Of a stretch of 64,000 bases of DNA, positions 15,590-45,743 are shown piece after piece (position 1 is the first letter of the stretch; each line of letters begins with the position of its first letter). The notes beneath the pieces were generated by a model, which had not been told where the DNA came from, searched no databases, and was given only the letters and a program-made list of their open reading frames with translations. The position numbers were made by a program, and so were the translations under genes. The DNA is from an uncultured Verrucomicrobiae bacterium (GTDB taxonomy: Bacteria > Verrucomicrobiota > Verrucomicrobiia > Chthoniobacterales > JAFAMB01): positions 672,001 through 736,000 of the forward strand of contig CAVXLD010000003.1 of assembly GCA_963762565.1 (NCBI GenBank). Reading direction: 5' to 3'.

Positions 15590-15590
15590 G

Positions 15591-26245: not shown

Positions 26246-26252
26246 GGCACTA

Positions 26253-27119: not shown

Positions 27120-27331
27120 TATGGTTCGCATGCTTAACTAGTGCAGTAAGTTCGTGACTTGTATAGCAAACCGCTAAGGAACAAGTTCAAAAGCTCGATG
27201 AGCGGGACGAGGAACAAGATCCGCCATCTCAGGGGGGCAGCGGAGGTTCTGCTATTGGCAAATACTCCAAGAATCGGGTCAAGTTCGGTTGTTGTGCTTG
27301 ATAGTATTCAGAGCATTTGGAATCTGTCTTA

Positions 27332-30540: not shown

Positions 30541-30597
30541 GTAGGGGCGAACGCGCCGATGTTTTGATTTTGCGCAGACTCGGCGGGAGCAAGGGGT

Positions 30598-31331
30598 TGG
30601 AGTAGCTATCGACTGGCCAAAGCTGTCGGAGTAAGTTAGTCGACGGTGAGCAATTCGGGCTGCAGCCATACCGCTCGCGCTTTTACATGGCTAGTTATGA
30701 CCCGGAATTTGAAGAAAAAGCCGCCGACATTATTGGCTTATACCTTCAGCCACCGCAGCATGCGGCAGTCTTCTGCGTCGATGAGAAAAGCGCTATCCAG
30801 GCCCTTGATCGGTTGGATCCAGTCCTGCCGCTTTCGCCCGGACGGGCCGAACGCCACGGTTTCGAGTACTATCGGCATGGCACTCTTTCACTCTATGCCG
30901 CGCTCAACGTTCAACCCGGAGAAGTACTCGGCAAGGCCAGCCCGCGCCATACCAGCGCCGAGTTCGTTGACTTCCTCGGCCAAATCGTTTGCTAGTCAAC
31001 CTTCCGATCGCGCAATCCACGTGATCGCCGACAATTTAGGCGCCCATAAAACCAAGCAAGTCTTTAGCTTCCTAGAGGCTCATCCCAACCTCCGCCTTCA
31101 CTACACCCCAACCTATTCCTCTTGGCTCAATCAAGTCGAAATCTGGTTTTCCAAGATTCAACGCCACGTCATCACCGGAGGGGTCTTCACTTCGGTCAAT
31201 GACCTGGCGCGCAAGCTCATGCGCTACATCCGCACCTATAATCAGACTTCTACACCGATCCGCTGGATCTACAAGACCTCACAAAAAGAATCGAGCCAGC
31301 TGCTATATGAGCATTAAACTTACTGCACTAG
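30598..31331 (+). pseudogene. Degraded IS630-family transposase
   Basis: HTH remnant WSSYRLAKAVGVS*STVS with an in-frame TAG at 30637. DDE motifs VDEKSAIQ / ADNL / SSWLNQVEIWF are split by a frameshift near 30990. Ends in ACTAG. Confidence 0.9.
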
Positions 31332-31397
31332 GGCCTACGAAAAACTGGCCGGGCTGCCAAACTTTTGCAAATAAAGATGTTCTTTCGTGGTTACTTC

Positions 31398-31427
31398 TTG
31401 ACCCCGGGAACCGCTCTTTTTTATTCT
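31398..31427 (+). promoter_or_regulatory. Putative sigma70 promoter
   Basis: TTGACC-18 nt-TATTCT upstream of 31548. Confidence 0.35.
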
Positions 31428-31547
31428 CCCGGGGACAGTTTAAGTTTCAGATATGCGCGGAACGAGATTAGAAGGACTCGAGGTTGCTGAACGGAACACC
31501 GGTCGGCCGAGGATGGCGCCGAACCGGCACTCAACATCAGGAATTGA

Positions 31548-33017
31548 GTGGATGAATCTGTGCTCATCGACCAACGAAAACGACTTCGACCATCGGACAA
31601 TCACGTGGCCGTGAAATGGTGGAACCGGGGCCGCCGCCGAGCCATGGTTATCGGCCTGGACTGTGCCGAGCCAGAGCTAGTATTTGAGCGTTGGTTGGAT
31701 CGGCTCCCCAACATTCGTTCTGTCATTCAGCAAGGCGCATACGGGCCGCTGCGGTCATGCGACCCGCCGATCACCGTACCGGCATGGGCCGTCATGACGT
31801 CTTCCAAGAAGCCCGGTACGCTCGGCGTCTATGGCTTTCGTAATCGAGCCGACCATTCTTACGATAAGCACTTAATCGCTAACTCCACGGCTATCAAAGT
31901 CGATCGGGTTTGGGATATACTTTCGCGGCACGGCAAAAAAGTCATTCTGATAGGGATACCGCAGACCTTTCCGCCCATGGCGGTCAACGGAATACTGGTT
32001 GGAGATTTCTTAACGCCCGATATTAAGGCTGACTATACCTATCCGAGCGAATTCAAGCATGAAATTGCGAAGGTCGTTGGGGAATACTTATTGGATGTTC
32101 GAGAATTCAGGTCGGACAAAAAGGAAGCCATTCTGAAAGAGATCTTCGAAATGACGCGCAAGCGATTCGAGTTGGCGCGTTATCTTCTGGCGGAAAAGGA
32201 ATGGGACTTTTTCATGATGGTCGAGATTGGGGTAGACCGCATTCAACACGCTTTTTGGGCTTACATGGATAAGACCCATCGCAACTATTGTCCGGGTAAC
32301 CCTTACGAAAACGCTATTTTTGACTACTACCAATTTGTCGATGCTCAGATCGGCGAGTTATTAAAGCTGGCAGACAAAGATACTACCGTATTCATCGTTT
32401 CTGACCACGGAGCTCAAAAGATGGAGGGCTCGATTTGTATCAATGAGTGGTTAATTCGAGAGGGCTATCTTACGTTGCTGGAATCTCCGACGACGTTGAC
32501 TCCATTTGCCAAGTTGAAGATCGATTGGTCTAAAACAAGCGCTTGGGGTGATGGTGGCTACTATTCTCGGATCTTCTTAAACGTGCGTGGACGAGAGCCT
32601 CAAGGGATAGTTGACGCCGCCCAGTACGAGAGTCTGCGGACAGAACTAGCTGCGAAAATTGAGGCGATCCCAGATCCGAACGGAGCCTCGATTGGAACCA
32701 GAGTGTTGCGGCCTGAAGATCTTTACAAATTCCGAAATGGGGTTGCGCCGGACCTAATGGCCTATTTCGGCAATCTAGCTTGGCGATCAGCCGGTACGGT
32801 TGGTCGGAGCTCGATCTATACTTTTGAGAACGACACCGGTCCCGATGATGCCAATCACGGACAGTACGGAATCTTTATCGTCAGGCCGACCGCGTCGATG
32901 GCAGGCCATAAGCTGTCGGGTTTGGAAATCCAAGATGTTGCGCCTACGGTTCTGAGGACCTTGGATGTTCCGATTCCCGACGACATGGAAGGTAAGGTTA
33001 TTCAAGAGGTGTGTTAG
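31548..33017 (+). CDS. Alkaline phosphatase superfamily, type I phosphodiesterase/NPP-like enzyme (second)
   Basis: VIGLDCA, PPITVPAW, IVSDHG, NDTGPDDANH, DVAPTVL, DMEGK. Confidence 0.85.
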   Translation: MDESVLIDQRKRLRPSDNHVAVKWWNRGRRRAMVIGLDCAEPELVFERWLDRLPNIRSVIQQGAYGPLRSCDPPITVPAWAVMTSSKKPGTLGVYGFRNRADHSYDKHLIANSTAIKVDRVWDILSRHGKKVILIGIPQTFPPMAVNGILVGDFLTPDIKADYTYPSEFKHEIAKVVGEYLLDVREFRSDKKEAILKEIFEMTRKRFELARYLLAEKEWDFFMMVEIGVDRIQHAFWAYMDKTHRNYCPGNPYENAIFDYYQFVDAQIGELLKLADKDTTVFIVSDHGAQKMEGSICINEWLIREGYLTLLESPTTLTPFAKLKIDWSKTSAWGDGGYYSRIFLNVRGREPQGIVDAAQYESLRTELAAKIEAIPDPNGASIGTRVLRPEDLYKFRNGVAPDLMAYFGNLAWRSAGTVGRSSIYTFENDTGPDDANHGQYGIFIVRPTASMAGHKLSGLEIQDVAPTVLRTLDVPIPDDMEGKVIQEVC

Positions 33018-33077
33018 GTTTGTGTAAGGCCCAATTCCGCACTGGAGGAATTGAGACTCTCTCGTTATAATCTGCGG

Positions 33078-33632
33078 ATGCGTTGCTGGTTTACCACCAT
33101 GGTCGCACTTTTCGTAGCTAGCGCGGTGCAGGCGGCGCTGTTGTTCCAGGATCGTCATGCCAGCGTAAATGGGCAAGAGACGGTCTATCGTTTCGAGGCG
33201 AACCCTGTGTCCACTACTGCTAGCATCGACCAATCGAAGGCGGTTAAAGTCGCAAAACTCTGGGCAGATGAATATTACGGGATTGGAGGCCTTGTCGTTG
33301 CTAACGCGCAAGAGCGAGCAATGCCGATGCGCTACTGGTTGATCGCTTTCAGGGCGCCCGGACAACCGAGGGACAGTACCTACTACTCTATTGTGTTGCC
33401 GGACGGTTCGGTGGTTGAGCCAAAGGTTTCACGACAAGGACTCACGGCGAGCCGTGGTCCGGTGGATGTCGCCAAAGCTAGCGACTTGATTGAGCCGCCG
33501 CCCAAGGGGGTCGAGATCCACGGCGAGATGATTTTTACCTATAGCTGGGGAAGAGGGTTAAGATGCAATGGCCCCTATGCCCCCGACCCGCTCTGGGACG
33601 CTCCATCTGTGGTTGCCCGGCCAGCGCCGTAG
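33078..33632 (+). CDS. Secreted hypothetical protein
   Basis: Signal peptide ending in VQA; no family recognised. Confidence 0.6.
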   Translation: MRCWFTTMVALFVASAVQAALLFQDRHASVNGQETVYRFEANPVSTTASIDQSKAVKVAKLWADEYYGIGGLVVANAQERAMPMRYWLIAFRAPGQPRDSTYYSIVLPDGSVVEPKVSRQGLTASRGPVDVAKASDLIEPPPKGVEIHGEMIFTYSWGRGLRCNGPYAPDPLWDAPSVVARPAP

Positions 33633-33671
33633 CCTAGTGAGGCTTGGTTCTCGTCGTCGTCCTTCCGACGT

Positions 33672-33760
33672 CGCCAACGTCCCGGGTGTGGAGCGCGCCT
33701 CGCTTGCGAGGTCGACTTCCAGCGGTTAGCAACATAGACCATGGGCTTCGTCGGACAGGA
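33672..33760 (+). repeat. Dispersed repeat (single-arm variant of family B)
   Basis: Near-identical, same orientation, to 61968-62055 (GTGGAGCGCGCCTCGCTTGCGAGG...CATGGGCTTCGTCGGACAGG). Confidence 0.85.
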
Positions 33761-33941
33761 CTTCGGCGAGCTCAGTCGAGTCGCTGTCCTCGAATCCGGG
33801 CACGCGGACTGGTGGAACACTGGAGTGCCGGAGTATTGCGCTTGTTCCGGATCGCGGACACGGGGCTGGGGATGCTTTAGGCTGCACCATCGTTCGGGAC
33901 TGGAAAGTTGCCTGCCGAGCGTTTTAAAAACGGCGCCCCTA

Positions 33942-34334
33942 TTAGTCCGCTCTCTCTCCGACCTCGCGGCCCAGGGGTATATTTCGATTCAAGAAGTAGA
34001 CCCACGCCCAGAGTCGCGGCCTTACGAGAGGAACTTGGCGGCGAATAAAGAGGGACGCTCGTGGATTCGCCGGATCGAATCCTTCGTAGAAGTCCAGTGT
34101 GCGGATCACATCCGGATCGATAACCCGAAATATCTCGATCGCAGTCATTCCCGGACCCTCGACTAACCCGGGAAAGGCCCTCTGCCAGAAGAGCCGGCCT
34201 CTGATCAAACCGCAACCGAAGAATTGAATCCGTGAGGCCGCCCCGGGGAGTTTCTGAAACAGAGATCGACGCCGGAGCGTGCCATAGACGGCCAGGAAAT
34301 TGTAGTAATCAGTAGTCAGTGGGTCAGTATCCAG
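33942..34334 (-). CDS. Gamma-glutamylcyclotransferase-family protein (no canonical start codon)
   Basis: The frame extends upstream of the listed TTG to FLAVYGTLRR; also LDFYEG and AWVY. Only CTG-type starts precede the motif. Confidence 0.72.
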   Translation of the reverse strand: MDTDPLTTDYYNFLAVYGTLRRRSLFQKLPGAASRIQFFGCGLIRGRLFWQRAFPGLVEGPGMTAIEIFRVIDPDVIRTLDFYEGFDPANPRASLFIRRQVPLVRPRLWAWVYFLNRNIPLGREVGERAD

Positions 34335-34392
34335 TTTAGGAGCTAGGATCTAGGAGCTAGGATCTAGGAGCGGGCGCCAAAGGGGGCGCTAC

Positions 34393-34579
34393 CCGTGGAG
34401 CGCTGCCTCGCTTGCGAGGCCGTGGTGAGCAGGGATGAATCACGACACATACGTATCTCGGTCAGCGCTCTGTATCGCAAAGTTTGCCTCTTCACACAAA
34501 AAAGCGTGGGCCGACGATGGGCATGTCAAGTAATAAGCGTTGCTCACCACGGTCTCGCAAGCGAGGCAGCGCTCCACGG
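34393..34579. repeat. Palindromic element, family B
   Basis: CCGTGGAGCGCTGCCTCGCTTGCGAG...CTCGCAAGCGAGGCAGCGCTCCACGG; second copy at 47146-47347. Confidence 0.9.
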
Positions 34580-34624
34580 CGGCGCCGCCTCCTAGCTCCT
34601 AAACTGATTACTGGACAAGCCTCC

Positions 34625-34951
34625 TCAGAACAGCGGCGCCGCAACAATAGCCGGCCGGCCTGGTCTGTTGGTGGTAGTTGGCGCGTTCTGCGTCGCTGGC
34701 ACGTTCTGCGAGGGGCCAGCATTTGGTTGCTGATCTGCCGGAGAAACCGTTTGGGCCGGATCGTGGGCCGGATTGTCGTTCGGTGCTTCCTTGGCGTCTT
34801 TCGGATGAGCCGGGTGATGATGAACGGCATGAGATTGCGGTTGTGGCCGCACAAAAAAATTCTTGAGTGCATCGAACGGACCGGCACTCGCCGGTTGCGC
34901 CAGAATACTTGCCGATAACAGCAGGACGGTGGTTAACTGAGCCACTTTCAT
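34625..34951 (-). CDS. Small secreted low-complexity protein
   Basis: Signal peptide ending in ASA; Pro/Gln/His-rich tail. Confidence 0.55.
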   Translation of the reverse strand: MKVAQLTTVLLLSASILAQPASAGPFDALKNFFVRPQPQSHAVHHHPAHPKDAKEAPNDNPAHDPAQTVSPADQQPNAGPSQNVPATQNAPTTTNRPGRPAIVAAPLF

Positions 34952-35022
34952 ATTTCAGGATCTTTCTTTTAAGGACACAGAAGCCAGGAAGATAAAAGCC
35001 TAACCGCAGATGTACGCAGATT

Positions 35023-35163
35023 AAGAATCGAACCGCGGCTTCGCCGAACAAGCCGCGAAGGATGCGAACAAGTCGGGCCCAATTTGCAATGATCAGTGTT
35101 CATTCCCGATACGGGTTTTAGCGAGCTGACCTTATCTGCGTCAATCTGCGTTCATCTGCGGTT
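35023..35163. repeat. Palindromic element, family E (CGCAGAT units)
   Basis: ACCGCAGATGTACGCAGAT ... ATCTGCGTCAATCTGCGTTCATCTGCGGTT; related copy near 46053-46212. Confidence 0.8.
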
Positions 35164-35199
35164 GGTTTTCTCCGCTTCGTGTCTTTGCGTTAAGTCTGT

Positions 35200-36192
35200 T
35201 TAGCCGGACGGCACCACCACGACCTCGCCGGCTTCATTGGCTTCAAGAGCAACCTCGTGTGCTCCTTGATCTTTCGCCTGCAACAATTGGTTAGCCAGCA
35301 TCTCATCGAGGATTCGTTCCAACTCACGAATACCGAATCGGCTGACCTTCTCGTTAGCGGCTAACGCCTGGAGCAATAGCTCGGGAGCCACGAAATGTAC
35401 TTTTAGCCGGTATTGTTCAGCTAACTTGGCGATCTTGAGCAGAGCGATCTCGGCGATGACCATACCGCTCAAAGGCTGGAAGACGTATACCCGGTCAATT
35501 CGTCCCACGATCTCCGGGCGGAACACTTTTGATTCAGCCAGATAGGTTTTAATCGAGTTTACCATTTCATGGTAATCCGTCACTTCCCGTTGGATCTGCC
35601 CAATCTGCTCTGCATTAGCATTACTCGTTAAAACGATAATGGTTTGCGAAAAATCGACTGCTTTTCCGCTCCCTTGTTCGGTGAGACGTGCTTCACCCAT
35701 GAGTTGCAGGAACAGATCAAACACCGGTGGGTAGGCTTTTTCGATCTCATCAAAAAGGATCAAGCGTCTTGGGCTGGCCATGACCGGACGGGTGAGCTGT
35801 CCGCCTTGTTCGGAAGAGATGTAGCCGGCGGGGACACCAATTAGCCGGTCTTTAGAGTGGGAGCCATTCAACTCGGAGCAATCGAAACGGAGCATGGCCT
35901 TTTCCTCTTTGAAAAGGAAAGTGGCGATCGCTTTTGCTAACTCGGTCTTGCCGGTGCCGGTCGGGCCCAGGAACAGCAGATTCGCAATTGGACGAGTCTT
36001 TTGTTGTTTGGCCGCCTGTAGCCGAATCAACCTGGCCACATCTTTTATAATGACATCCTGACCTTTAACCCGCGCCTGGAGATGCTCCAATAGCGCCGGC
36101 TCGTCGATCCTCATGGTCTTGCCGTCATCATCCTGATTTTCGAGCAACCGCTTGAGCTGCTCCCAATCTGTCATGCCACGGATGTCAGCCAT
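35200..36192 (-). CDS. Stand-alone ClpA/ClpB D2-type AAA+ ATPase (soluble)
   Basis: RVKGQD, GPTGTGKTELAK, RLIGVPAGYIS, LFDEIEKA, VDFSQTIIVLTSN, FRPEIVGRID, GIRELER. No N-domain or D1. Confidence 0.9.
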   Translation of the reverse strand: MADIRGMTDWEQLKRLLENQDDDGKTMRIDEPALLEHLQARVKGQDVIIKDVARLIRLQAAKQQKTRPIANLLFLGPTGTGKTELAKAIATFLFKEEKAMLRFDCSELNGSHSKDRLIGVPAGYISSEQGGQLTRPVMASPRRLILFDEIEKAYPPVFDLFLQLMGEARLTEQGSGKAVDFSQTIIVLTSNANAEQIGQIQREVTDYHEMVNSIKTYLAESKVFRPEIVGRIDRVYVFQPLSGMVIAEIALLKIAKLAEQYRLKVHFVAPELLLQALAANEKVSRFGIRELERILDEMLANQLLQAKDQGAHEVALEANEAGEVVVVPSG

Positions 36193-36254
36193 TGTTAGTA
36201 CTTCTATTTCACCACAAAGGCGCGGAGAACACAAAGATTAACCTTGAAAGCCTT

Positions 36255-38105
36255 TTATTCGGCGCGCTCATTTGAGGTCACCGCTTGTTTGTCGGAAATC
36301 CGAACTGTGGAAAAACCGTCCTTGTTGCTCTGGGTCGGTTGATCGCTGAAGGTGGTGTTGGTGAGGCTGACATAACCGCGGTTGAGCGCCGAAACTCCGT
36401 AGGTCCGGTTAGATCCGATCGTGGAGTTTTCCAGGGTGATCATGGAGCTTTCAGTGGCCTGAGCACCGATATCGTTCTGTTCCAACGTGCAACTGGTGAG
36501 TGCGATTTTTGCCTCATTCCTGGCTACGACTCCCGTACCCTGGAAGCTCAGGAACTGACATTGCTGGCCGTGCACCTGTGAATTCGAACCCACGGTTTCT
36601 AACCCGTTTCCTTTTCCGCCTTTGACATCGCAGCCGGCCATTTCGAGCATCGATCCGGTATCGACATAGATCGAGCTATCCCAGGCGTCGCCATTGATAT
36701 GGCAATTGAATAGCTTCAGATAGCTGGCCCGGGTTAGCCGCGCCGCCTGTCCGGCTTGGCCGGACAAGGTGACATTCTCTAGTTGAGCAGATCCGCCCTT
36801 TGCCACGTTGGCTGCACTTACACCCAAATCGACGCCGTATTGGCCCCCCTGAATGGTGATATCCTTCAAACTAGCCTGCGCCTGATCAGCGACTAAGACG
36901 CCGGCGAATTGCACATCAGTGAAGGTCGTATTTGTCACGGTAGCAACCGAACCCTGACCGATAACCAGGAGATTCGCGAAATTTGCCGCTGAATCGCCAC
37001 CTTTCGGAATTTGGCCGCAGCCTTGGAATTTGCAGCCGTCCATCGTAAGCTGACCTCCGTTCCAAACCAGCACCGCTCTTGGATTGGAAACGAACTCGCA
37101 GCCGGTTAAGGTGAGCTTTCCAGGAGTATTCTGCTCAGAAGTACTTGCTGCCACCGTATACTTCCAGTAGCCCTCGCGGCTCTTTTCAAAACGGCAGTTT
37201 GTTAACATCATTATCCCCTGGGCATCCGTGACTACGCCCGTGTTTTCCGTAAAGGTACAGCGATTGAACTCAGCAGATCCCGTACTGGTGAAATAGACCA
37301 GGGAGGCGTCTTTAGAGTCGCTAATATTATTATCGAATTTGGAGTCGTTTATGACCACGGAACCCTGTTCAGTACAATCGACGCACCTTAGGTTTTCTTC
37401 GAAAGTACAACCTTGGATAGTGGCCTTAGCGTATCCTTTGACGGTACAGGCAAACCCCTTGCCTACCGAGCGCAGGGAACTGTCCTGCAAGGTCAACTGA
37501 GCATTGTCTGACAGCGCAATGCAATTGCTTCCCCGGGAAACGAAATTGCAGTTTTTGATTTGCACAACTGATTGCGAAATGGCTGAGATGAGGACGGATC
37601 CGCCTTCTGATGTTTCGCCGAAATCGAGATTCTGAAGTGTCACCTGGCCGCCAGTGATCACACAGCCGGTGCCGGAATAGTGGATTGAAGCCCGGACGCC
37701 AGTCTTTTGATCGGTGTCGCCGGTGATAACGACTGACTTCGCTAGAGCTAGCGGGCCGTTATAACTGCCGGGTTTTACCTGAACGGTGTCACCGTCCTGT
37801 AGGCTGTTTACAATTTGGGCAAAATCCTTAGCGTCGGAATCTGCCGCTCCGGTAGAATCGAGCACCCACTGCCGTCCATGCTTCGGGTTACTGAGGACTT
37901 GCGATTGCGAGGTTACCTGGTTGTTGGTCGTCGTCTGGTTGTTATTGGTGGTCTGAGTGCTGCTCGTGGTCTGGGTGCTGGTACTCGAAACGAATTTACC
38001 CGTGAACATATCCACCACCGTGGTACACAGCGCGACTAACCCGACCAGCGAGCAAACGATGACCCACTGGTTTTTGATTAACAGTCGAAAATCAAGTCCT
38101 CTCAC
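36255..38105 (-). CDS. Membrane-anchored right-handed parallel beta-helix protein
   Basis: N-terminal TM, T/Q/N-rich linker, GDTVQVKPGSY, many xxCxF/I..N..G coil repeats; GTGA overlap with the upstream gene. Confidence 0.82.
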   Translation of the reverse strand: MRGLDFRLLIKNQWVIVCSLVGLVALCTTVVDMFTGKFVSSTSTQTTSSTQTTNNNQTTTNNQVTSQSQVLSNPKHGRQWVLDSTGAADSDAKDFAQIVNSLQDGDTVQVKPGSYNGPLALAKSVVITGDTDQKTGVRASIHYSGTGCVITGGQVTLQNLDFGETSEGGSVLISAISQSVVQIKNCNFVSRGSNCIALSDNAQLTLQDSSLRSVGKGFACTVKGYAKATIQGCTFEENLRCVDCTEQGSVVINDSKFDNNISDSKDASLVYFTSTGSAEFNRCTFTENTGVVTDAQGIMMLTNCRFEKSREGYWKYTVAASTSEQNTPGKLTLTGCEFVSNPRAVLVWNGGQLTMDGCKFQGCGQIPKGGDSAANFANLLVIGQGSVATVTNTTFTDVQFAGVLVADQAQASLKDITIQGGQYGVDLGVSAANVAKGGSAQLENVTLSGQAGQAARLTRASYLKLFNCHINGDAWDSSIYVDTGSMLEMAGCDVKGGKGNGLETVGSNSQVHGQQCQFLSFQGTGVVARNEAKIALTSCTLEQNDIGAQATESSMITLENSTIGSNRTYGVSALNRGYVSLTNTTFSDQPTQSNKDGFSTVRISDKQAVTSNERAE

Positions 38106-39301
38106 TGCATTGACACTCCCGATGCACCCAATTCTTCTTCCAGAACGGGTTGGATTAACAGCTCGTTATTCGGCCCGGCCTCTAGCCGAACCTTAGTAAA
38201 ACCCGAAGTTCGCGCCTGCACGATGGCGGAATTGGTCGTTTGCTTAAGATAATTCTCAAGCTGGCGGACGCCGTACTGTTTGAACTCGACATTCTTGGCG
38301 ACGGTATCGAGCAGGATTTCGGGAGAAGTATAGGTCAACTCGATCCCATAGTCGCGCCAGTACCGAGCCAACTGGAGGCAAGCGACTTCGGCGACATGGT
38401 ACGCAGAGAGCTCGTCCATGAGAATGATATGAGCCCAACGGGCAAGAAAAGCGCGATCGAATCCCGCATTGTCGACTAGCGCATCGCGGCTCTGTCCAAG
38501 CCATAGAGCTTGATCTTTGGTTGGGTTGATTTCTTGGCGCAATTTTCTCAGTGCCTCTACGCCGGCGTTGCTGGTCCCAAAGAAGACGCACTGGCTGAAA
38601 TCGACTTCTTTTCCGCTGCTTTTCTCGCGGCAAGTGCCGGCGTCCAATATGTCGAACAAGCAATGATGCAAATCGGGGTGAGCCTTCTCTAGCTCATCCA
38701 AAATGACCACCCGTTTCGGATTAATCAGCACCGGTCTGGTGAGAGAGCCTCCCACCTCATATCCAGGCATACCCGGGGGCGGCCCGAGCAGCGTCTGAAC
38801 ATCGTTAGGCGTCTTGTATTGATTCATCCGCAGGATTACCGGATCGCTGTCGGGGTACAAAGCTTGGGCCAGCAACTGTGGCAGGAAGGTTTTTCCCGTA
38901 CCAGTTGGACCGACTAACAAGAAGGATCCTAAGAGTTGTCCTGGCTGAGCAATGGCAACCTGACTGCGTAAACTTGAGCTCACGATCTCGATCGCCTCGT
39001 CCTGTCCGCGAACATTGGTCTTTAGCCACTGTTCGGTTTGGGCAAAATCGATGTTGCCCAGCCTGGAGAAGTTCTCTTCTCGCGCTCGAGACGGAGTAGG
39101 AACCCCAGCGCCCATCTGCCGAATTGCGACGTAGACCAGGCCGCCAATTGCCAGGAGAAGAAGAACTGGGGAGAACCAGGCGCTGACTTGGTTCAAAGCA
39201 ATGACGGCGCCTGACAGCGTAACAATCAAGCCGGCCAGCATAGCGGGCGCTAGAGGCTGTTCCGAGCTGCGCTCGAACCAGGAATGCGTCGGGGAACTCA
39301 T
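38102..39301 (-). CDS. Stand-alone ClpA/ClpB D2-type AAA+ ATPase with two N-terminal TM helices
   Basis: Two hydrophobic helices, then VRGQDEAI, GPTGTGKT, LLGPPPGMPGYEVGG, ILDELEKAHPD, VDFSQCVFFGTSNAG, YGVRQL. Confidence 0.88.
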   Translation of the reverse strand: MSSPTHSWFERSSEQPLAPAMLAGLIVTLSGAVIALNQVSAWFSPVLLLLAIGGLVYVAIRQMGAGVPTPSRAREENFSRLGNIDFAQTEQWLKTNVRGQDEAIEIVSSSLRSQVAIAQPGQLLGSFLLVGPTGTGKTFLPQLLAQALYPDSDPVILRMNQYKTPNDVQTLLGPPPGMPGYEVGGSLTRPVLINPKRVVILDELEKAHPDLHHCLFDILDAGTCREKSSGKEVDFSQCVFFGTSNAGVEALRKLRQEINPTKDQALWLGQSRDALVDNAGFDRAFLARWAHIILMDELSAYHVAEVACLQLARYWRDYGIELTYTSPEILLDTVAKNVEFKQYGVRQLENYLKQTTNSAIVQARTSGFTKVRLEAGPNNELLIQPVLEEELGASGVSMQ

Positions 39302-39321
39302 TTGATTTAGCCCTAAGGCGC

Positions 39322-40086
39322 TTACCGGCGTTGCATCTCTAAATTAGCCTGACCGCCGGTAGCGAGGGGAGGGGTGTGAAGAACAATGCCCTCATTCGAT
39401 GGAACGAAGCAAGTCACCGTTCCTTGAGGACCGGCAGAATCGACCACGAAGTGGAAATTAGTGACCGATTTCCGGCTGACTGGGACAATAGTAGTTTTTG
39501 GATGTTCCTCGGTTAAGACGTCCGTAAGCGCTAGCTGCCCATCGATGCTCACATAAACGTGGACCATGATTCCGCTTGCCTTGGCCGGGTCGAACAACTG
39601 TTTCCGGGTTAGGTCCATCTCCCCGTTCTTGATCTTCTCCAGCGCCTGTTGGCTTGTGTTCCTGAGATAGGAAGGAACTTCGCCGCGTTGCAGTGAATCC
39701 CGAGCCTGTTGGGTCAGTTGTTGATCAATGTCGCCGTCCGACAACATCAGGACCTGAGAAGTGGATGTGGCTCCGGCGTGCTGCCACGCGTAGTAGCCGC
39801 CTCCGGCGATGCCTGCGGCGGCCATCAGCACCAACAAATAAATGAGCGCTGATTTTCGCCAGTCCTTTTTCACCGGGTGACCGTTTTGCGGCTGATCCGA
39901 CATACCAGAGGCCGCTGTTTGGGGGACATAGGCTCGTCCCGAGCGCGAACCGCGGCGATCGGATTGATCCTGGCCCACCTTTGGCCCTAAGCGTTTGATC
40001 GCTCGCTGATCGCCCTGGGTCGTATCATATCCAGGTACGGTCGTCTTTCGTATCGCGGGATCGGATCTCTCTGGCACCGGTTCCAT
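39322..40086 (-). CDS. Bitopic membrane hypothetical protein
   Basis: Disordered N-terminus, TM LIYLLVLMAAAGIAGGGYYAW, beta-rich C-terminal domain; 20 nt from the next gene. Confidence 0.7.
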   Translation of the reverse strand: MEPVPERSDPAIRKTTVPGYDTTQGDQRAIKRLGPKVGQDQSDRRGSRSGRAYVPQTAASGMSDQPQNGHPVKKDWRKSALIYLLVLMAAAGIAGGGYYAWQHAGATSTSQVLMLSDGDIDQQLTQQARDSLQRGEVPSYLRNTSQQALEKIKNGEMDLTRKQLFDPAKASGIMVHVYVSIDGQLALTDVLTEEHPKTTIVPVSRKSVTNFHFVVDSAGPQGTVTCFVPSNEGIVLHTPPLATGGQANLEMQRR

Positions 40087-40343
40087 AAGAAGTATTGGTA
40101 TCTTGACGTCGGCCTCCCCGAATTACTCCATACCCTAGAGAGTAAAAATCGGCCCCGAGTGTACCAAGAATTCGACAAATGTCGATGCGTTAGGCGCTTT
40201 CATGGAATCTGCGCTCTATTTTCCGCACCTCTGGGTGATGTGGGTTGGGGGAATGATCGTTTGGGCGGGCTTCGTCTCGCAGGGACTCGAGGACCATCCC
40301 AAAGAGACTGGACTCAGCCCGAGGTCAAGAGACGTGTGTCTCT

Positions 40344-41183
40344 CGTCCCGAAGGGACTGAACGATGGTAGCCTGGCATGAAATGCCTGGGAAAGGCCCCA
40401 AACCGACCCGTCCCGTAGGGTACGGTATGATCGGGGCGGCTAGCCCCAGAGATATTTTTCGTCAAGATTGCCGCCGTGCCCCTTGAGAAAAGCTAGATAC
40501 TCTTCTTTAAACGTCCGGGTTCGGTGATGTTCGAGCTGCCGTTCGATGTAACAGACGGTTTCAGGTATTTGCGATATGCCAACGCTAAAGGCGCCGTACC
40601 CCTGCTGCCAGGCAAAGTTCCGCAAATGCGGATAGGTCTGATGTATCCAGCCTGACGAACCTGTTTTGATCAATTGAACTGCTTTTGCTATTCCCATGGT
40701 GGTCGGGAGCGCGAGGAGGAGGTGAACATGATCTGCGGCGCCGCCGATGCATTTTGGAACAATTCCATTCTGTTTGGCAATGCCACCTATGTAAGGCCAA
40801 AGACGTTCTCTAATATCGGGAGTCAAAACGGGAACGCGCTCTTTTGTGCTAAAGACACAATGGATGTGCAGGCACGAGAAGGTATTCGCCATAGAGCGTA
40901 TGATCCAAAAAATCGCTAATAGTGATAACACTAAGGAGTGATGTTATGTGTTACCTATCCGATTTCGCCAGGTGTCATCGCATGAGGGTGAGGAATGCGT
41001 GAGGGCATTGCGCTACGGGCAGGACCTCTATCATACCGTCCCTCTGGGACGGGTCGCATAGGGGGCTATTTTCCAGGCATTTCATGCCAGGCTACCATCG
41101 TTCGGTCCCTCCGGGACGGCTCGCATAGGGGGCCATTTTCCAGCATCTCATGCCAGGCTACTTTCATTCAGTCCCTACGGGAC
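40344..41183 (-). mobile_element. IS200-like/RAYT element flanked by inverted REP-like arrays
   Basis: Left arm 40344-40431 and right arm 41030-41118 are inverted copies containing GTCCC-NNN-GGGAC hairpins; an extra tandem unit lies at 41119-41183. Confidence 0.85.
40440..40892 (-). CDS. tnpA: IS200/IS605-family Y1 HUH transposase (REP-associated type)
   Basis: HCVFSTKER, DHVHLL (HUH), FAWQQGYGAFSV, YIERQLEHH. Confidence 0.93.
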   Translation of the reverse strand: MANTFSCLHIHCVFSTKERVPVLTPDIRERLWPYIGGIAKQNGIVPKCIGGAADHVHLLLALPTTMGIAKAVQLIKTGSSGWIHQTYPHLRNFAWQQGYGAFSVGISQIPETVCYIERQLEHHRTRTFKEEYLAFLKGHGGNLDEKYLWG

Positions 41184-41512
41184 AAACCTACCCCTCAAAC
41201 TCCGCGTTTGTTCCCCGGTCTTGTGCTGAGACTGACGGCAAGCGCATGTCGCTGCGAATAAGTTTCTCCGCTGCAGGACATGCGCTCGGACTCGGGCCAA
41301 ATCTGGGCTACGCATTCTTGAATCAATGCGATTGCCAGTTTTTCTAGAGGTAGGCCGAACGGGTGAATCAGTTTCAAGCCCAGGAGAAGAAACCTGAGCC
41401 GCCTGGCAAAGCGATGTCTTCTCTTGGCTAGCTGGTTGTAGTAGCGCTGCTGGCAGCGCCTTATTGACGGAGGCGATTCCATGGCAAGAGCAGAGCCAAG
41501 CCCTTCAGAACC

Positions 41513-42115
41513 TCAGCGCTTAGCGGCATCATTGACAATCGGCGTCGAATCTTTGTCGGGTGCTGGGTCGATTCGCAGTGCCTGCTGCAGCATATCGTTT
41601 ACCATCTCCGCAGCAGAACCGAAGGCATGAACCGGCGCTAACGTAACCCGCGACAGAACCACGTACTGTTTAGCCCCTAAGTCGAAACCGAAATACCAAA
41701 GATCCGAGTCACCAATAAAAAGGTATTTTCCAGCGGTTTCCGGCATAACGGACCAAAGGGAAAGATTTTCGGCCACGATCGTTGGGCCGTAAGCCTGTTC
41801 GTCGGGAAGATCTTGGTCGGTACCAAAGAGGCTGACCCCATTTTCCGAGAAACCATCTACTGCGGCGAAGATCTCCCGAAGTTCGACCGGCAGCTCGATT
41901 CCCAGCTCGTCGTACGCTGCCTGCTCTGTTTGCTCGATGTCTTCGGGCAGGGCTCCAGGAAGGAGCGGCCGGTTGCCTCGGGCTGCATCGCGGGCCAGAC
42001 GGTGTTCCAGGTTGGTTCGCTCGTCTGACGATAATTGCAGGTAGTATTGGGACGCTCGGAGATCGTTGAGAAATAGCTCGCTGAGCTCGCTTAATAAGTC
42101 GGTGTTGAGGTTCAT
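41513..42115 (-). CDS. SMI1/KNR4 (SUKH, YrhA-like) immunity protein
   Basis: IEQTEQ...LGIELPVELREIF..VDG..NGVSLFG, YLFIGDSD, FGSAAEMV; acidic; 2 nt after the nuclease stop. Confidence 0.8.
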   Translation of the reverse strand: MNLNTDLLSELSELFLNDLRASQYYLQLSSDERTNLEHRLARDAARGNRPLLPGALPEDIEQTEQAAYDELGIELPVELREIFAAVDGFSENGVSLFGTDQDLPDEQAYGPTIVAENLSLWSVMPETAGKYLFIGDSDLWYFGFDLGAKQYVVLSRVTLAPVHAFGSAAEMVNDMLQQALRIDPAPDKDSTPIVNDAAKR

Positions 42116-42117
42116 AG

Positions 42118-43200
42118 CTAGACTTTAATGGTAGTGCCAGCGTTTACTTTCGGTCCGGCGGCGATTCTGGTTTGACTTCGTTTTCGACTAGATTTTGTTT
42201 TTGCCAGAGGCGGTGTTTCCGGAGTGGCTGTAAGGTTGGAATCGACGATCGGCAGCTTGTTTTTCGGCACATGGTCGGGGCCAAGTTGGTGCCCGTTCAC
42301 GTAGGCGTCGCCTGGAAGCCATTCTGCGGTTAAACCCTCCACCTTGCGAGCGAGTTCATCGCGCGCCGTCAATTTAGCTGATTCGTCTTTGTTCTTCTTA
42401 CTGTAGAACTCGCCGAACGCCCGAGTAATGTCGTGGAACTCTTTGGGGACGGAGTAGGCGCGGTGCCCGGTCGCTTTCGAGAATTCTAGTATGCGCTTTT
42501 CCCAGACTTCCGGTAATGGAGGCGCTCCTAGATTCTTGAGATGTTCCCGAAGCTGTTCCGGGGTCTTGAACCCCTGGGTGACAGGAGGATAAAAGGGAAA
42601 CAATGGTCGCACTACGTAGATGGGAATCTCAGCGTTCGGTGCGTTATGGGTTTGGGCATGGAGTAATAAGCTGTGCCAGAGATGGTGCGGATTTTGTGAC
42701 TGATCACGGCCCCGGCGAGTGGTATTCGCAATTACAAAATTGCGGGGATGGTTAACCGCGGCGTCGCCTCCAGCGACAGCGACACTTTTGGGGATCACGT
42801 GATGGCAGTTGTAAGTGACCTGGCGGCCACGCACCGCCCGCTCGGGTGGCGCGGTGGAGTCGATCAACGTAGACGGGCTCCGGCCTGCTTCCATCAGTTT
42901 CACCCCATCCGGGCCGACGGCGAGTAGGGCCAAGGTCCGGCCAATTGGATGATTGACTAGAGCTTGGAAGTATTCTTCCCGGATGTGGTTGTAGTCTTTG
43001 ATGACGGTCTTGTATTCTTCGCCTTGGCGATCCAGGGCTCTGCCGAGGATACGGTCCAAAACGACGCCGGGAAGCTCTGGACATGCGCCCACAATTTCCG
43101 GGTCAGGCGCCAATTTCTCGAAATCACGAATCGCTTCAGCGACGGCATCGATCATCTCCTGACGCGGAGGAGCAGGAGGTTGTTTTTTTGAAGAGCTCAT
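42118..43200 (-). CDS. Putative HNH-fold nuclease toxin
   Basis: LMEAGRSP...YNCHHVIP...GG...NHPRNF...HHLWH is an HH-N-N-H pattern; lies directly upstream of a SUKH gene. Confidence 0.7.
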   Translation of the reverse strand: MSSSKKQPPAPPRQEMIDAVAEAIRDFEKLAPDPEIVGACPELPGVVLDRILGRALDRQGEEYKTVIKDYNHIREEYFQALVNHPIGRTLALLAVGPDGVKLMEAGRSPSTLIDSTAPPERAVRGRQVTYNCHHVIPKSVAVAGGDAAVNHPRNFVIANTTRRGRDQSQNPHHLWHSLLLHAQTHNAPNAEIPIYVVRPLFPFYPPVTQGFKTPEQLREHLKNLGAPPLPEVWEKRILEFSKATGHRAYSVPKEFHDITRAFGEFYSKKNKDESAKLTARDELARKVEGLTAEWLPGDAYVNGHQLGPDHVPKNKLPIVDSNLTATPETPPLAKTKSSRKRSQTRIAAGPKVNAGTTIKV

Positions 43201-43366
43201 GGTTTGGGAACGAGGTGGGGATGGGTAGGGGAGAGGCTATCGCTCGGGAGTTGAGGCATGCCGTAATAACATCTGTAAGACATGTTGTGATATATGCAGG
43301 ATGTTCTACGGCTTTGCAAGAACAAACCGTAATCATGTTATTAATTTCGGCCGGAGGAAGTTTTAG

Positions 43367-43690
43367 GGCGCGAAGCGCTGGTAGATTTTAGCCTAGGCTG
43401 AGTCTGCGAGGCCTAGGTAGCCATTTCCCCCAAAGCGAGAGCGCTGAAGGCGAGGAAGAAACAGGGTTGCATATATAATAACTATTATCCTATATGTTAT
43501 GGTCATGCCCCAATCGCTCTCCTGCCTTCTTCTCCGGTTGCTTTCGACGAACGATACGTCTGGGATTGAACTCCGGTTCTTTCGCGCCTTCAGCGCTTCG
43601 TCGCTGGGGGGCCGTTACCTAGGCCTCGCAGACTCAGCCTAGGCTAAAATCTTGCAGCCCCGAAATGCTTCGGGGTAAACGCTTCGCGCC
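43367..43690 (+). mobile_element. Non-autonomous, internally deleted IS200/RAYT derivative
   Basis: Perfect 37-bp inverted repeat (43383-43419 / 43616-43652) around 43505-43569, which encodes MPQSLSCLL and, in another frame, VAFDERYVWD*. Confidence 0.8.
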
Positions 43691-43761
43691 TAGTTCTCCG
43701 GAGTGGACAGTAACCGGAAGGCTCAACTAGTCCTCACTCACGCAGCGCTGCATTGACCCCT

Positions 43762-45408
43762 TCACAACAACATAAACGCCAGCCCCACGATAACGGTCGG
43801 AACAAGCGCGCCCAGGAATAGACCGAGAGGGGAAATTCCGGCTTCGCCAAAACGGGAAGCTAGAATGCTCTGGCCAGCCGGGTTGGGGGCATTGGCGATC
43901 ACGGTTAAACCGCCCCCGGTCACGGCGCCGGCCATTACGGCATAACGCGAAGAGTCAGGGAATCCAGGGACAAGGGTAGCCAGGTAGGTGATGGCGGCAT
44001 TGTCATTAAGTGCCGTGAGAGCGGTGGCGCAGATCATCAGCGGCCATTGGCTAAGCGATTTGAGAACGGGGCCGATCCACCAGGATTGACAGCCGCCATG
44101 GATGACTAGGGAGGCCAAGAAAAATCCCACTAACAGAGGAGGCCGCAAAGCGATGCCTTGCTGGTTATGCCGAGTGGCTGAGACAAAGGCGAGAAAGAAA
44201 AGGAAACCGAGAACCACTAGCACCGGATAATGCGCACTAATAACGGTCCAGACGAGGAACAACAGGTGAATCAGCGTGATAGACCAAGGCACTCTTCTTC
44301 GATCCTCTTCATCTCCAAATTCGCGCCGTTCTTGATTAAGCCGGCTGAACTCTTTTCGAAACGCGAGCCAATATAGAATATTCGAGATAATGATCGCGAT
44401 GACCGCTTTCCAGCCAAAGTTAGCCATCATGAAAGGCATGTCCCATTTCCAAGCGCTGGCGGCGAGTACCACGGGCGGAGCTGCGAAATGAGTTAGCGTG
44501 CCGCCGACCGAAATATTGACGAATAGCAATCCCAACGTGGCGTATTTCAACCGGCTGCTGGAATGCAAATTGTAAAAACGATGCCGGAGCAATAGGGCGC
44601 AAATGGTCATGGCTGCGGGCTCGGTGATAAAAGACCCCAAGATCGGTCCGATGGTTAGGATCGACATCCACCAGGCGGCAGGCGAACTTCGGCCGAGTTT
44701 AGCGACTTGCGAGATCGCGGTTTCCGCCGATCGCAGGATAGGTAACGATCCGGCGATCGCCATGATCACAACGACGAAGACCGGGTCCGCGACGTTGACA
44801 TGCCCGACGTAATCTACCATAGCGTCCCAGCCTTTGAATAGGATGATGGCGAGGAAAAGGGGAATCAACCAGATCCCGAAGACGGCTTCGATCTCTCCCA
44901 TGAAATGGTAGAACTGAGCCCAGAAAACCAGATGATCCCGTTTCCCTTCCGCAACTACCAGGTTCGGGTCAGCCTGTTCTTCCTCGAGCCGCAACAATCG
45001 ATGTTCAAAACTCCGTGAACGTTTCTGGAATTGGGCGGCCAAAAAAGTGTGCGTAATCGCCAATGCGAAAATGACGGTGGCGATCAGGTTAAGTGGATCA
45101 CTCTGAACCCGCCCCCAGAGCTGCGCCGGGATAAAAGTCACGTCGTCATCGTGATAGCTAGCCGGGTCCGCCGGGTATGCGCCGGCGCTGACTGATGCCG
45201 CGTGAAGGGAAGGCGACGCTAGGAGCAAAAAGCCGAGCAATAGAAGGAGTCGCTTGGTGAAAGGTGAAAGGTGAAAAGTGAAAGGTGAAAAGCGACTTAT
45301 ACCCAGGGGTCGGGGACGATGCCCGATAGTCCCGCAGGTCTTCTGGGCCGTAGAAGTTCCTTCTAAGCCAGCGCGTTCAGGATCCCTGGAGCACCTTTCA
45401 CTTTTCAC
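43762..45408 (-). CDS. Putative Na+/H+ antiporter (DUF1504-like); true start uncertain
   Basis: Many TMs; GEIEAVFGIW, GSFITEPAAMT, FVNISVGGTLT, DNAAITYL, GGGLTVIANAPNPAG. Confidence 0.82.
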   Translation of the reverse strand: MKSERCSRDPERAGLEGTSTAQKTCGTIGHRPRPLGISRFSPFTFHLSPFTKRLLLLLGFLLLASPSLHAASVSAGAYPADPASYHDDDVTFIPAQLWGRVQSDPLNLIATVIFALAITHTFLAAQFQKRSRSFEHRLLRLEEEQADPNLVVAEGKRDHLVFWAQFYHFMGEIEAVFGIWLIPLFLAIILFKGWDAMVDYVGHVNVADPVFVVVIMAIAGSLPILRSAETAISQVAKLGRSSPAAWWMSILTIGPILGSFITEPAAMTICALLLRHRFYNLHSSSRLKYATLGLLFVNISVGGTLTHFAAPPVVLAASAWKWDMPFMMANFGWKAVIAIIISNILYWLAFRKEFSRLNQERREFGDEEDRRRVPWSITLIHLLFLVWTVISAHYPVLVVLGFLFFLAFVSATRHNQQGIALRPPLLVGFFLASLVIHGGCQSWWIGPVLKSLSQWPLMICATALTALNDNAAITYLATLVPGFPDSSRYAVMAGAVTGGGLTVIANAPNPAGQSILASRFGEAGISPLGLFLGALVPTVIVGLAFMLL

Positions 45409-45431
45409 GTTTCACCTTTCACTTTTTCCAA

Positions 45432-45731: not shown

Positions 45732-45743
45732 GGTCCAATTTGG

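Follow-up and report, generated by a model that had tools for sequence, protein, structure and literature searches.

The locus described here lies in a stretch of 64,000 nucleotides (nt) from an uncultured Verrucomicrobiae bacterium, hereafter called the window, in which an operon of four co-oriented genes occupies positions 35200-40086 of the minus strand, about 4.9 kb. The genes follow each other head to tail in the order P4-P3-P2-P1 and encode, respectively, a bitopic protein (P4, 39322-40086, 254 residues), a membrane-anchored AAA+ ATPase comprising only the second ATPase module (D2) of ClpB (P3, 38102-39301, 399 residues), a predicted signal-anchored periplasmic beta-helix protein (P2, 36255-38105, 616 residues) and a soluble, likewise ClpB-D2-only, AAA+ ATPase (P1, 35200-36192). 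P4 and P3 are separated by 20 nt, and the stop codon of P3 overlaps the start codon of P2 in the sequence GTGA. The longest open reading frame (ORF) of P1, 35200-36234, starts at a TTG codon at 36234 and would leave a gap of 20 nt after P2. The P1 orthologues start at the methionine encoded at 36192, which gives a protein of 330 residues and a gap of 62 nt. An earlier note, made from the sequence of this DNA, had described the four co-oriented genes with the same gaps and overlap; its figure of 62 nt holds from the ATG at 36192.

The two ATPases

With regard to P1, the match to the Pfam family AAA_2 (PF07724) has an E value of 4.5e-43 and 147.6 bits, against a cut-off of 27. The closest solved structures are those of ClpB D2 (E about 1e-54), and P1 aligns over the whole D2 module, including the small domain. 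No transmembrane helix is detected by hydropathy. P1 retains Walker A (GPTGTGKT), Walker B, the sensor-1 asparagine, the arginine of the arginine finger, the sensor-2 arginine and the pore-loop tyrosine. The pore loop, GVPAGYISSEQGG (35800-35838, minus strand), contains Gly123-Tyr124, both of which are invariant in 18/18 P1 sequences of an alignment (A3) that spans several phyla, with identities of 52-80%. Outside D2, P1 exhibits only an N-terminal segment of 35 residues. The beginning of this segment (36133-36192, minus strand) is conserved, with the consensus M-x-D-L-x-K-M-T-D-W in A3; T8, W10 and L13 are invariant in this alignment, and the segment has no counterpart in ClpB D2. The matches of P1 to the PDB structures of Skd3/human CLPB (E 1e-33 to 1e-35) cover only residues ~35-200.

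P3, which is 31% identical to P1, also matches AAA_2 (E 7.8e-28, 98 bits, same cut-off), and its NCBIfam matches to ClpV/ClpB are confined to D2. Outside D2, it comprises a transmembrane hairpin and a linker. The two helices of the hairpin are found at residues 17-35 and 46-64 by hydropathy (39110-39253, minus strand, for residues 17-64), and the turn between them is conserved as L-N-Q-V-S-x-W-F. According to motif alignments, Walker A (GPTGTGKT) is encoded at 38888-38911 on the minus strand, Walker B corresponds to residues 201-208, Arg288 occupies the position of the arginine finger and Arg346 corresponds to sensor 2. All nucleotide-handling motifs (Walker A and B, sensor 1, arginine finger and sensor 2) are invariant in 12/12 P3 sequences. 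The pore loop, GPPPGMPGYEVGG (38747-38785, minus strand), is degenerate and exhibits a methionine where the GYVG of ClpB has its tyrosine. In 11 aligned P3 sequences, this position is occupied by M, S, V or R in seven and by tyrosine in one (locus L070); the loop is deleted in the three others, which are distant members (loci L083, L097 and L099).

Several further residues of P3 are invariant in the same 12/12 sequences, namely Cys214, Cys224, which starts a C-R-E-K-S-S-G hairpin, and Cys308 (window positions 38378-38662), as well as His208 and His302. These residues are absent from ClpB D2 and from P1, and it is conceivable that they form a metal or redox site. Homologues of P3 are numerous: 536 were found at E<=1e-10 among metagenome proteins of 219-699 residues, the best 120 listed being 52-99% identical. 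Eight homologues belong to clusters whose members are named 'ClpA' or 'hypothetical protein' alone.

The same genome encodes a ClpB-like frame of 862 residues and a ClpA/C-like frame of 841 residues, both full-length, the D2 modules of which are 40% and 38% identical to P1, respectively. With the ClpB/Hsp104 model of NCBIfam (TIGR03346), P1 reaches 227 bits and P3 149 bits, both below the cut-off of 1232, and the two proteins align to positions ~560-840 of 853. As this alignment is confined to the last third of the model, P1 and P3 possess no N-domain, D1 or M-domain. The NCBIfam models of ClpA and ClpV are likewise matched in their last third alone, with scores well short of the cut-offs. When they are aligned to the D2 modules of the genome's own ClpB and ClpA/C, all the catalytic motifs of ClpB D2 are found in P1, and all except the pore-loop tyrosine in P3. 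The LGF-bearing insertion of the ClpA/C D2, which constitutes the ClpP-docking loop ([LIV]-G-[FL]), is absent from both proteins, so that they do not look like ClpP-docking unfoldases. The earlier note had made the same reading of the two ATPases, that is, D2 modules only, with intact Walker A and B, an arginine in the arginine-finger region and a sensor-2 arginine, without N-domain, D1, M-domain or ClpP-docking loop, and with two N-terminal transmembrane helices in one of them. The alignments and the hydropathy profile confirm it in each respect, and a coordinate check confirms the pore loops that it gave, GYIS in P1 and GMPG in P3.

The ClpV/TssH model (TIGR03345, cut-off 885) gives 169 bits for P1 and 152 bits for P3, over D2 only, and no type VI secretion family was found among the scanned ORFs of the window or among 71 ORFs neighbouring the operon in 21 loci. 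The scores with the torsin family (PF06309), 24.1 and 21.8 bits, are below the gathering cut-off of 27. The PADLOC models PDC-M37B and DolB give 100 and 72 bits for P1 and 59 and 42 bits for P3, over profile positions ~130-300 only. Their partners, DolA in Dodola and M37A in PDC-M37, are absent, as P2, P4 and two upstream proteins have no PADLOC match.

The phylogeny places P1 and P3 in clades of their own. In a maximum-likelihood tree of 153 rows (quick IQ-TREE run, midpoint root for drawing only), the P3-type clade (76 rows), the P1-type clade (69 rows) and the clade of canonical D2 modules (eight rows) have supports of 100, 99 and 99, respectively, in the Shimodaira-Hasegawa-like approximate likelihood ratio test (SH-aLRT). 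The canonical clade includes the ClpB and the ClpA/C of the genome and a 767-residue protein that neighbours the operon in a related genome (G016). The same lineage groups are observed in the P1 and P3 subtrees, so that the pair has travelled together. Based on these comparisons, we consider P1 and P3 to be old and distinct families within the D2 lineage of Clp/Hsp100, which are not fragments of clpB and which fail membership of the ClpB, ClpA/C, ClpV, torsin and DolB families as judged by their scores and motifs. They share with ClpB/Hsp104, ClpA/ClpC and ClpV the whole D2 module, including the small domain, and the catalytic motifs. In contrast to these proteins, they exhibit a single AAA module and form separate clades, P3 is anchored in the membrane and lacks the pore tyrosine, and both ATPases are accompanied by P4 and by a solenoid protein with a membrane anchor as conserved partners.

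The membrane partners P2 and P4

P2 matches the Pfam family Beta_helix (PF13229) in five stretches (E 1.8e-44, 151.6 bits). Its AlphaFold2 (AF2) model, with a predicted local distance difference test score (pLDDT) of 86.6, comprises a single transmembrane helix (residues 13-35; 8-26 by hydropathy), a disordered linker and a long right-handed beta-helix (residues 78-605), which is a pectate-lyase-like fold. The structural neighbours retrieved by Foldseek are PL6 alginate lyases, AlgG/AlgE epimerases, glucanases and phage tailspikes (E 3e-8 to 1e-3, TM-score <=0.52). The model thus places P2 in the glycan-handling class of beta-helices, which is a predicted fold only and does not allow any enzyme activity to be claimed. 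The N-terminal anchor, composed of a short basic tail and the transmembrane helix (38001-38105, minus strand), is followed by a linker rich in S, T, Q and N.

The gene downstream of P3 was scanned with Pfam in 37 other loci (the window being excluded). It encodes a Beta_helix protein in 15/37 loci, from Verrucomicrobiota, Elusimicrobiota and Oligoflexia. Sel1 repeats are found at this place in 10/37 loci, belonging to Planctomycetota, Binataceae, a proteobacterial record, two Spartobacteria-type loci and one Gemmatimonadetes, and a BNR/Ycf48-like propeller is found in 5/37, all from Gemmatimonadota. The remaining seven loci exhibit no family at E<=1e-8. Nevertheless, the three kinds of partner have their N-terminus in common. 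An alignment of 31 proteins reveals a shared anchor consisting of a short basic tail (the cytoplasmic tails comprise ~8-12 residues), a transmembrane helix (approximately L-L-x-N/D-x-W-F-Q-L ... A-x-x-S-G ... Y-N) and a low-complexity linker. As a control, a hidden Markov model (HMM) was built from 14 anchors of the beta-helix class only and searched against the 4,583 ORFs of 80 loci. With E values between 1e-9 and 1e-6, this search recovered both the Sel1 partners (36.3, 30.0 and 29.0 bits) and the BNR partners (26.4-30.8 bits), and genes downstream of P3 account for nearly all of the 78 best matches. The anchors of the close relatives of P2 in the window clade obtained 14.5-18.9 bits (E 3e-4 to 7e-3); that of P2 is a divergent copy, which matches the anchor family by eye in the 31-protein alignment.

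From these sequence comparisons, the gene following P3 appears to encode an interchangeable periplasmic repeat protein (beta-helix, Sel1 or BNR propeller) that keeps one and the same N-terminal membrane anchor. The overlap between the stop codon of P3 and the start codon of its partner is found in many other loci too. A search among longer proteins revealed a single fusion, P0169 (716 residues), in which P3 is followed by a transmembrane helix and then by Sel1 repeats. The number of anchored repeat genes also varies: two are present in each of L052, L061, L067 and L071, three, all of the Sel1 type and with near-identical anchors, in L059, and up to five in L062. In the Sel1-type verrucomicrobial loci L050 (9623-10531) and L052 (10739-11653), an additional conserved gene of ~302 codons lies downstream of the Sel1 gene, and before P1 in L050; its product has no transmembrane helix, and the L050 copy has no Pfam match at E<=1e-3. 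In passages of a published study (PMC7159879), Sel1 domains preceded by a transmembrane helix are treated as cell-wall-associating.

P4 has no significant family match in Pfam, NCBIfam or PADLOC. Hydropathy and the AF2 model indicate a disordered cytoplasmic N-terminal tail, one transmembrane helix and a periplasmic part composed of a helical hairpin and a beta-sandwich; pLDDT exceeds 90 for residues 110-254. The transmembrane helix (residues 79-97; 39796-39852, minus strand) has a hydropathy of 1.87 and corresponds to residues 76-94 in the AF2 model. The cytoplasmic tail carries the motif SGRAYVP (39922-39942, minus strand), for which the family pattern is G-x-A/G-Y-x-P; Tyr53 is conserved in at least 90% of the sequences of an alignment (A2) of 25 P4 proteins from both gene layouts described below. 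The presence of a beta-helix protein and of a bitopic protein, each with a single transmembrane helix, agrees with the earlier note. For the operon as a whole, hydropathy and the positive-inside residues predict a cytoplasmic location for the P4 tail and for the ATPase domains of P1 and P3, the P4 sandwich and the solenoid being on the outer side.

The P4 family is large. A profile search over 1.84 billion representatives gave 747 clusters (50% identity) at E<=1e-3, 333 at E<=1e-10 and 79 at E<=1e-30. Its fold has no counterpart at E<=1e-3 in the PDB with Foldseek, and the ESM Atlas gave no usable match; a wide VIA search reached at best a Z of 5.1, with Ig/FN3-like sandwiches, which represents a common arrangement only. 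Among 79 P3-bearing loci, an improved profile found full-length P4 in 56, a weak or short match in 11 and none in 12, at least four of which are located at a contig edge. Nine of the 11 short matches are Elusimicrobiota genes of 81-106 codons, located just upstream of P3 and matching the N-terminal part of the profile. Those of L069 and L070, the two that were inspected at the sequence level, consist of the tail motif and the transmembrane helix, and the 105-residue versions retain the tyrosine motif. A gene of 305 codons located upstream of the L070-type Elusimicrobiota loci was considered as a candidate P4 and rejected (hhalign probability 4.9%), whereas the 305-codon gene of L083 is a P4 (99.8%).

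Distribution and genomic context

P3 orthologues were searched for in 40 genomes of relatives, with a threshold of E<=1e-125. They are present in 4/5 genomes of the same genus and in 2/3 and 1/3 genomes of two other genera (g8 and g4), which amounts to 7/24 genomes for the whole family (f1), and in 0/16 genomes from other families of the order. All seven P3-bearing relatives exhibit a P1-type match a few kb away, and the order P4-P3-P2-P1 is kept in 5/5 of the relatives' loci that were fetched. In the most distant relative, G016, the identities are 31% for P4, 50% for P3, 25% for P2 and 59% for P1. In 400 other genomes sampled across the phylum, no P3 orthologue was found at E<=1e-70.

The module extends well beyond this phylum. 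In a cross-phylum scan with one genome per species, 536 stretches matched, a relative being encoded in 239 of them. The analysis was continued with the 80 best, on all ORFs of which HMMs of the four proteins were run. According to the record labels, 32 of the loci belong to Elusimicrobiota, 28 to Verrucomicrobiota, six to Gemmatimonadota, six to Planctomycetota, four to Bdellovibrionota, one to Binataceae and one to 'Proteobacteria', two being unclassified. P3 was found in 79/80 loci, the last one containing a full-length Clp, and P1 is encoded in the same locus as P3 in 68/79, a recurrence that puts the arrangement far beyond chance. Nine of the 11 P3 loci without P1 end, at the end of a contig, within 3.2 kb of P3, and the other two, L052 and L095, hold fragments only. 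Two gene orders are observed: P4-P3-repeat-P1 in 57 loci and P1-P4-P3-repeat in 11 loci, from Planctomycetota, Gemmatimonadota and the proteobacterial record. As a conserved module, the set spans six phyla or more, its carriers being bacteria of soil and fresh water.

These results support part of the interpretation given in the earlier note. Its candidate system is one conserved module, with P1 and P3 recurring together across genomes and the four-gene order kept among relatives. Its ATPases did not prove to be recent fragments of clpB, as full-length ClpB and ClpA/C are present in the genome and P1 and P3 form separate old clades. No described system for this gene set was found in Pfam, NCBIfam, PADLOC or the open full-text literature. 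The beta-helix protein, however, is not a fixed part of the set, and the hetero-oligomeric translocase with a role in secretion, surface display or conflict that the note suggested is a candidate reading only.

Some loci exhibit signs of rearrangement or decay. An IS110 transposase lies between the repeat gene and an inverted P1 in L043. In L052, a P1 fragment of 67 residues is all that is left of this protein, both ATPases are fragmented in L095, and P3 is fragmented at a contig end in L096. With regard to mobile replicons, a tblastn search with P3 against plasmids and phages revealed no orthologue, every match being of the ClpB/TssH type with less than 35% identity. A two-piece match on a Runella plasmid was rejected as an orthologue because it corresponds to a ClpV that is split in two, in a locus for type VI secretion. 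The organism of the window is a soil bacterium: it was found in 20 DNA sequencing runs from 17 studies, 18/20 runs being labelled soil metagenome, with no RNA run listed.

The genes that flank the operon are not the same in all loci. A Pfam scan of 71 neighbouring ORFs from 21 loci gave a match at E<=1e-12 for 39 and none for 32. Those with a match look metabolic or housekeeping and include genes for ribosomal protein L1, NusG, Cys-tRNA synthetase, GAR synthetase and an ammonium transporter, as well as for ABC and MlaD proteins, dehydrogenases, additional Sel1/TPR proteins and one IS110 transposase. No defence-type family was found among these 71 ORFs. In G016, a divergently oriented gene beside the operon (L018 5391-7694; L055 12584-14887) encodes the 767-residue protein mentioned above, which carries a third Clp-D2-like module at its end, is 39% identical to P1 and forms a long branch in the canonical D2 group.

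In the window, a promoter-like site (TCGACA, 16 nt, TG-TACACT) is found at 40158-40185 on the minus strand, ~70 nt upstream of P4. It is a consensus match only, and the region contains five such sites for a mean of 3.9 in shuffled sequences, which is not above the shuffles. An Rfam scan of positions 30000-46000 gave no match. Directly upstream of the operon, a gene for an IS200-like Y1 transposase (40440-40931, minus strand; Y1_Tnp, E 7.6e-26) lies between inverted repeats of 50-55 nt (40344-40399 versus 41069-41183, 82-94% complementary), and tandem copies are present on one side (41030-41183). The whole of 40344-41183 looks like a REP-associated tyrosine transposase (REP, repetitive extragenic palindromic) with its REP elements. 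On the other side, a DDE_3 transposase-like ORF (30646-31317, E 3.8e-15) brackets, together with the Y1 transposase, a stretch of ~9 kb that holds the operon. A palindromic element of ~290 bp composed of nested inverted repeats (34325-34613) lies in a poorly coding stretch downstream of P1; the inner repeat comprises 39 nt with 97% complementarity (34393-34431 / 34541-34579) and the outer one 24 nt with 92% (34325-34348 / 34590-34613). Further upstream of the operon, at 41513-43200, a gene for a YrhA-family protein (200 residues, NCBIfam 65.8 bits against a cut-off of 55) follows a gene for a 360-residue protein without a family match, both on the minus strand and 2 nt apart, possibly as a two-gene cassette.

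The plus strand of the window exhibits, at 12628-28642, what looks like a gene cluster for the synthesis and export of a sulfated exopolysaccharide. It comprises genes for a phosphodiesterase, a GT4 glycosyltransferase, HlyD-like and outer-membrane efflux proteins, a Wzx-like flippase and two sulfotransferases, and three large ORFs without a Pfam match, one of 1032 codons. Membership of the operon in this cluster was considered and rejected, as the two are on opposite strands and separated by more than 6 kb; that glycosyltransferases neighbour the operon in only 2/21 other loci also counts against it.

A putative inner-membrane remodelling complex

Based on these observations, we tentatively propose, at somewhat less than an even chance, that the products of the four genes form a single AAA+ complex of the inner membrane, in which a periplasmic binder would be coupled to ATP-driven pulling or remodelling at the membrane, with threading in the cytoplasm. 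P3 would be held in the membrane by its transmembrane hairpin and would pair, through membrane helices, with the anchored repeat protein, which is the beta-helix protein P2 in the window and a Sel1 protein or BNR propeller elsewhere. This pairing is suggested by the translational coupling of the two genes, the one fusion and the shared anchor. P3 still looks capable of hydrolysing ATP but has lost the threading tyrosine, so that we regard it as an ATPase for tethering and regulation. P1, in which the pore-loop tyrosine is invariant, would be the threading motor and would cooperate with P3, the two forming either one mixed ring or two stacked rings. On the cytoplasmic side, polypeptide handles could be provided by the disordered P4 tail, which carries the tyrosine motif, and by the short tails of the anchored proteins. 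The swappable ectodomain would set the periplasmic target, probably an envelope glycan or protein; beta-helix, Sel1 and BNR-propeller folds are common glycan or protein binders. Three directions of flow are candidates: binding outside may control the ATPases, ATP hydrolysis may move the ectodomain, or a polypeptide may be extracted toward the cytoplasm. A complex prediction for P3, P1 and residues 1-110 of P4 gave a score of 0.00 in two runs, which were made without controls, and counts neither for nor against the complex.

No precedent was found for the gene set, which would, by analogy, resemble membrane-tethered AAA+ remodelling machines. Torsins with LAP1/LULL1 also combine a single Clp-D2-like module at the membrane with bitopic partners. 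However, torsins have no arginine finger and borrow the arginine from their cofactor, whereas both bacterial ATPases keep their own arginine at this position, and their ATPase domains are cytoplasmic and not on the lumen-equivalent side. Pex1/Pex6 with Pex15/Pex26, Msp1 and FtsH may be alike in that a paralogous AAA+ pair would act at the membrane on cytoplasmic tails; the kinship is no closer than AAA+, and P1 and P3 have neither a protease domain, which FtsH has, nor double-ring polypeptides. Skd3/human CLPB associates a single D2-like module with a repeat domain, which is ankyrin in Skd3, whereas the repeat protein of the present module is a separate gene product, periplasmic, membrane-anchored and not ankyrin. 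Transmembrane coupling between an ATPase in the cytoplasm and a binder in the periplasm would also recall the mechanotransmission of FtsEX-EnvC and MacB-type systems; the ATPase of FtsEX is of the ATP-binding cassette (ABC) class, and no homology is claimed.

Several observations weigh against the proposed complex. P4 is undetected in 12/79 loci, including 2/3 Bacteriovoracaceae loci, the third of which has a P4 match of 18 bits only, on the opposite strand, and it is reduced to the tail and the transmembrane helix in part of the Elusimicrobiota, so that P4 cannot be the universal substrate. A distant variant that lacks P4 is present in a record labelled Bacteriovorax stolpii (L101). The anchor of the window clade is divergent. 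In a scan of the whole genome of the window (G000), a first HMM, with P2 in its training set, found P2 alone; an HMM built without this clade gives P2 12.2 bits (E 0.22), below an unrelated segment, and has little power for the clade. The fusion P0169 is one protein on one contig of 2.9 kb and may be an artefact of assembly or of a frameshift. In several loci, two to five anchored repeat genes are present, which is compatible both with alternative subunits and with cargo that a machine would sort. The distribution, with 7/24 genomes in the family, 0/16 in the other families and 0/400 in the phylum, is patchy, as is typical of accessory transferable functions, including defence. As 32/71 neighbours have no Pfam match, hidden defence genes are also possible.

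A role in dislocation or quality control is an alternative. The solenoid would recognise damaged or surplus envelope proteins, or be itself the client, and the AAA+ pair would extract them from, or draw them across, the inner membrane into the cytoplasm, a logic known from FtsH, Msp1, Pex1/Pex6 and endoplasmic reticulum-associated degradation (ERAD), in which a Sel1-repeat receptor is used with Cdc48. AAA+ threading motors draw the polypeptide toward themselves, and P1 retains the tyrosine of such motors. Single-helix, periplasm-facing Sel1 proteins adjoin cytoplasmic AAA+ ATPases in the module, the membrane helices of P3 and of the anchors exhibit conserved polar residues (N, Q, S) within or beside them, and the lack of a ClpP-docking loop in P1 and P3 is also in line with this role. 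We nevertheless regard it as unlikely, because the set contains no channel-like polytopic protein, protease or ubiquitin-like tagging gene, because the anchor tails, with ~8-12 residues, offer a short threading handle, and because the translational coupling and the fusion to P3 suggest a stable subunit and not a client.

The module could also be a bacterial counterpart of eukaryotic membrane extraction and retro-translocation, for which we see only a slight chance. A single-helix periplasmic receptor (Sel1, beta-helix or propeller), in the position of Hrd3/SEL1L, would hand envelope proteins to the tethered Clp-D2 pair, which would pull them into the cytoplasm along a path lined with the helices of P4, the hairpins of P3 and the anchors. 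In ERAD, Hrd3/SEL1L is a single-helix Sel1-repeat receptor that works with an AAA+ motor, and the likeness, for which no homology is claimed, is limited by the absence from the module of an Hrd1/Der1-like channel and of a ubiquitin system. We know of no dedicated ATP-driven protein traffic from the periplasm to the cytoplasm in bacteria.

An anti-phage or conflict system, in which the variable repeat domain would sense an invader or envelope damage and the ATPases would be the effector, as proposed for DolB, is a distinctly unlikely account. The PADLOC models PDC-M37B and DolB do match both ATPases, which are stand-alone ClpB-like ATPases like their namesakes, but these matches are limited to the AAA core and weaker than the match to ClpB (227 bits). 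Dodola consists of DolA and DolB; neither DolA nor M37A is present here, and the context is not a defence island, with 0/71 neighbours in 21 loci belonging to a defence-type family. Conflict systems typically combine a constant core with swappable repeat sensors, and the patchy distribution, the decayed copies in L052, L095 and L096 and the transposases on both sides of the operon in the window would fit such a system. Parts of the study cited above (PMC7159879) also record Sel1 domains preceded by a transmembrane helix in conflict systems. Against this, no nuclease, protease, pore or NADase effector was found among the Pfam-scanned proteins of the loci, and no orthologue on plasmids or phages. 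We infer that the module has an envelope function rather than a function in phage defence.

The shared N-terminal segment could also be a sorting signal and the solenoids cargo, which the ATPases would unfold, hold or insert, in the manner of Bcs1 or of a private SecA/SecB-like chaperone. A conserved N-terminal signal on a variable passenger is the signature of a cargo family, two to five anchored genes are present in some loci (L059, L062 and L052), and large solenoids fold slowly. However, ordinary signal-anchors require no private ATPase, and all the anchor-bearing genes seen lie inside the loci (the scan of G000 having little power for the window clade). The translational coupling and the fusion to P3 also speak in favour of a subunit, and such dedicated biogenesis or sorting seems very unlikely. 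Finally, the view that there is no joint machine, P1 and P3 being two stand-alone cytoplasmic chaperones beside unrelated membrane proteins, is compatible with the complete D2 module of each ATPase, small domain included, but is strongly disfavoured by the co-occurrence of P1 and P3 in at least six phyla and two gene orders, the GTGA overlap, the membrane hairpin of P3 and its lost pore loop.

Clp/Hsp100 ATPases are textbook cytoplasmic unfoldases. In the present module, two single-module relatives of these proteins constitute ancient families of their own and appear to be linked with the inner membrane and with a periplasmic binder that is exchanged like a cassette. If the proposed complex exists, bacteria would have, in addition to the proton-driven Ton/Tol motors and ABC-type mechanotransmission, a new way of coupling cytoplasmic ATP to events in the envelope, and the complex would represent a prokaryotic analogue of the logic of torsin and its cofactors, of Pex1/Pex6 or of ERAD. 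The module is found in abundant and poorly studied lineages, namely Udaeobacter-like Verrucomicrobiota, Elusimicrobiota, Gemmatimonadota and Planctomycetota, and its small size of four genes makes it possible to rebuild it in a laboratory host.

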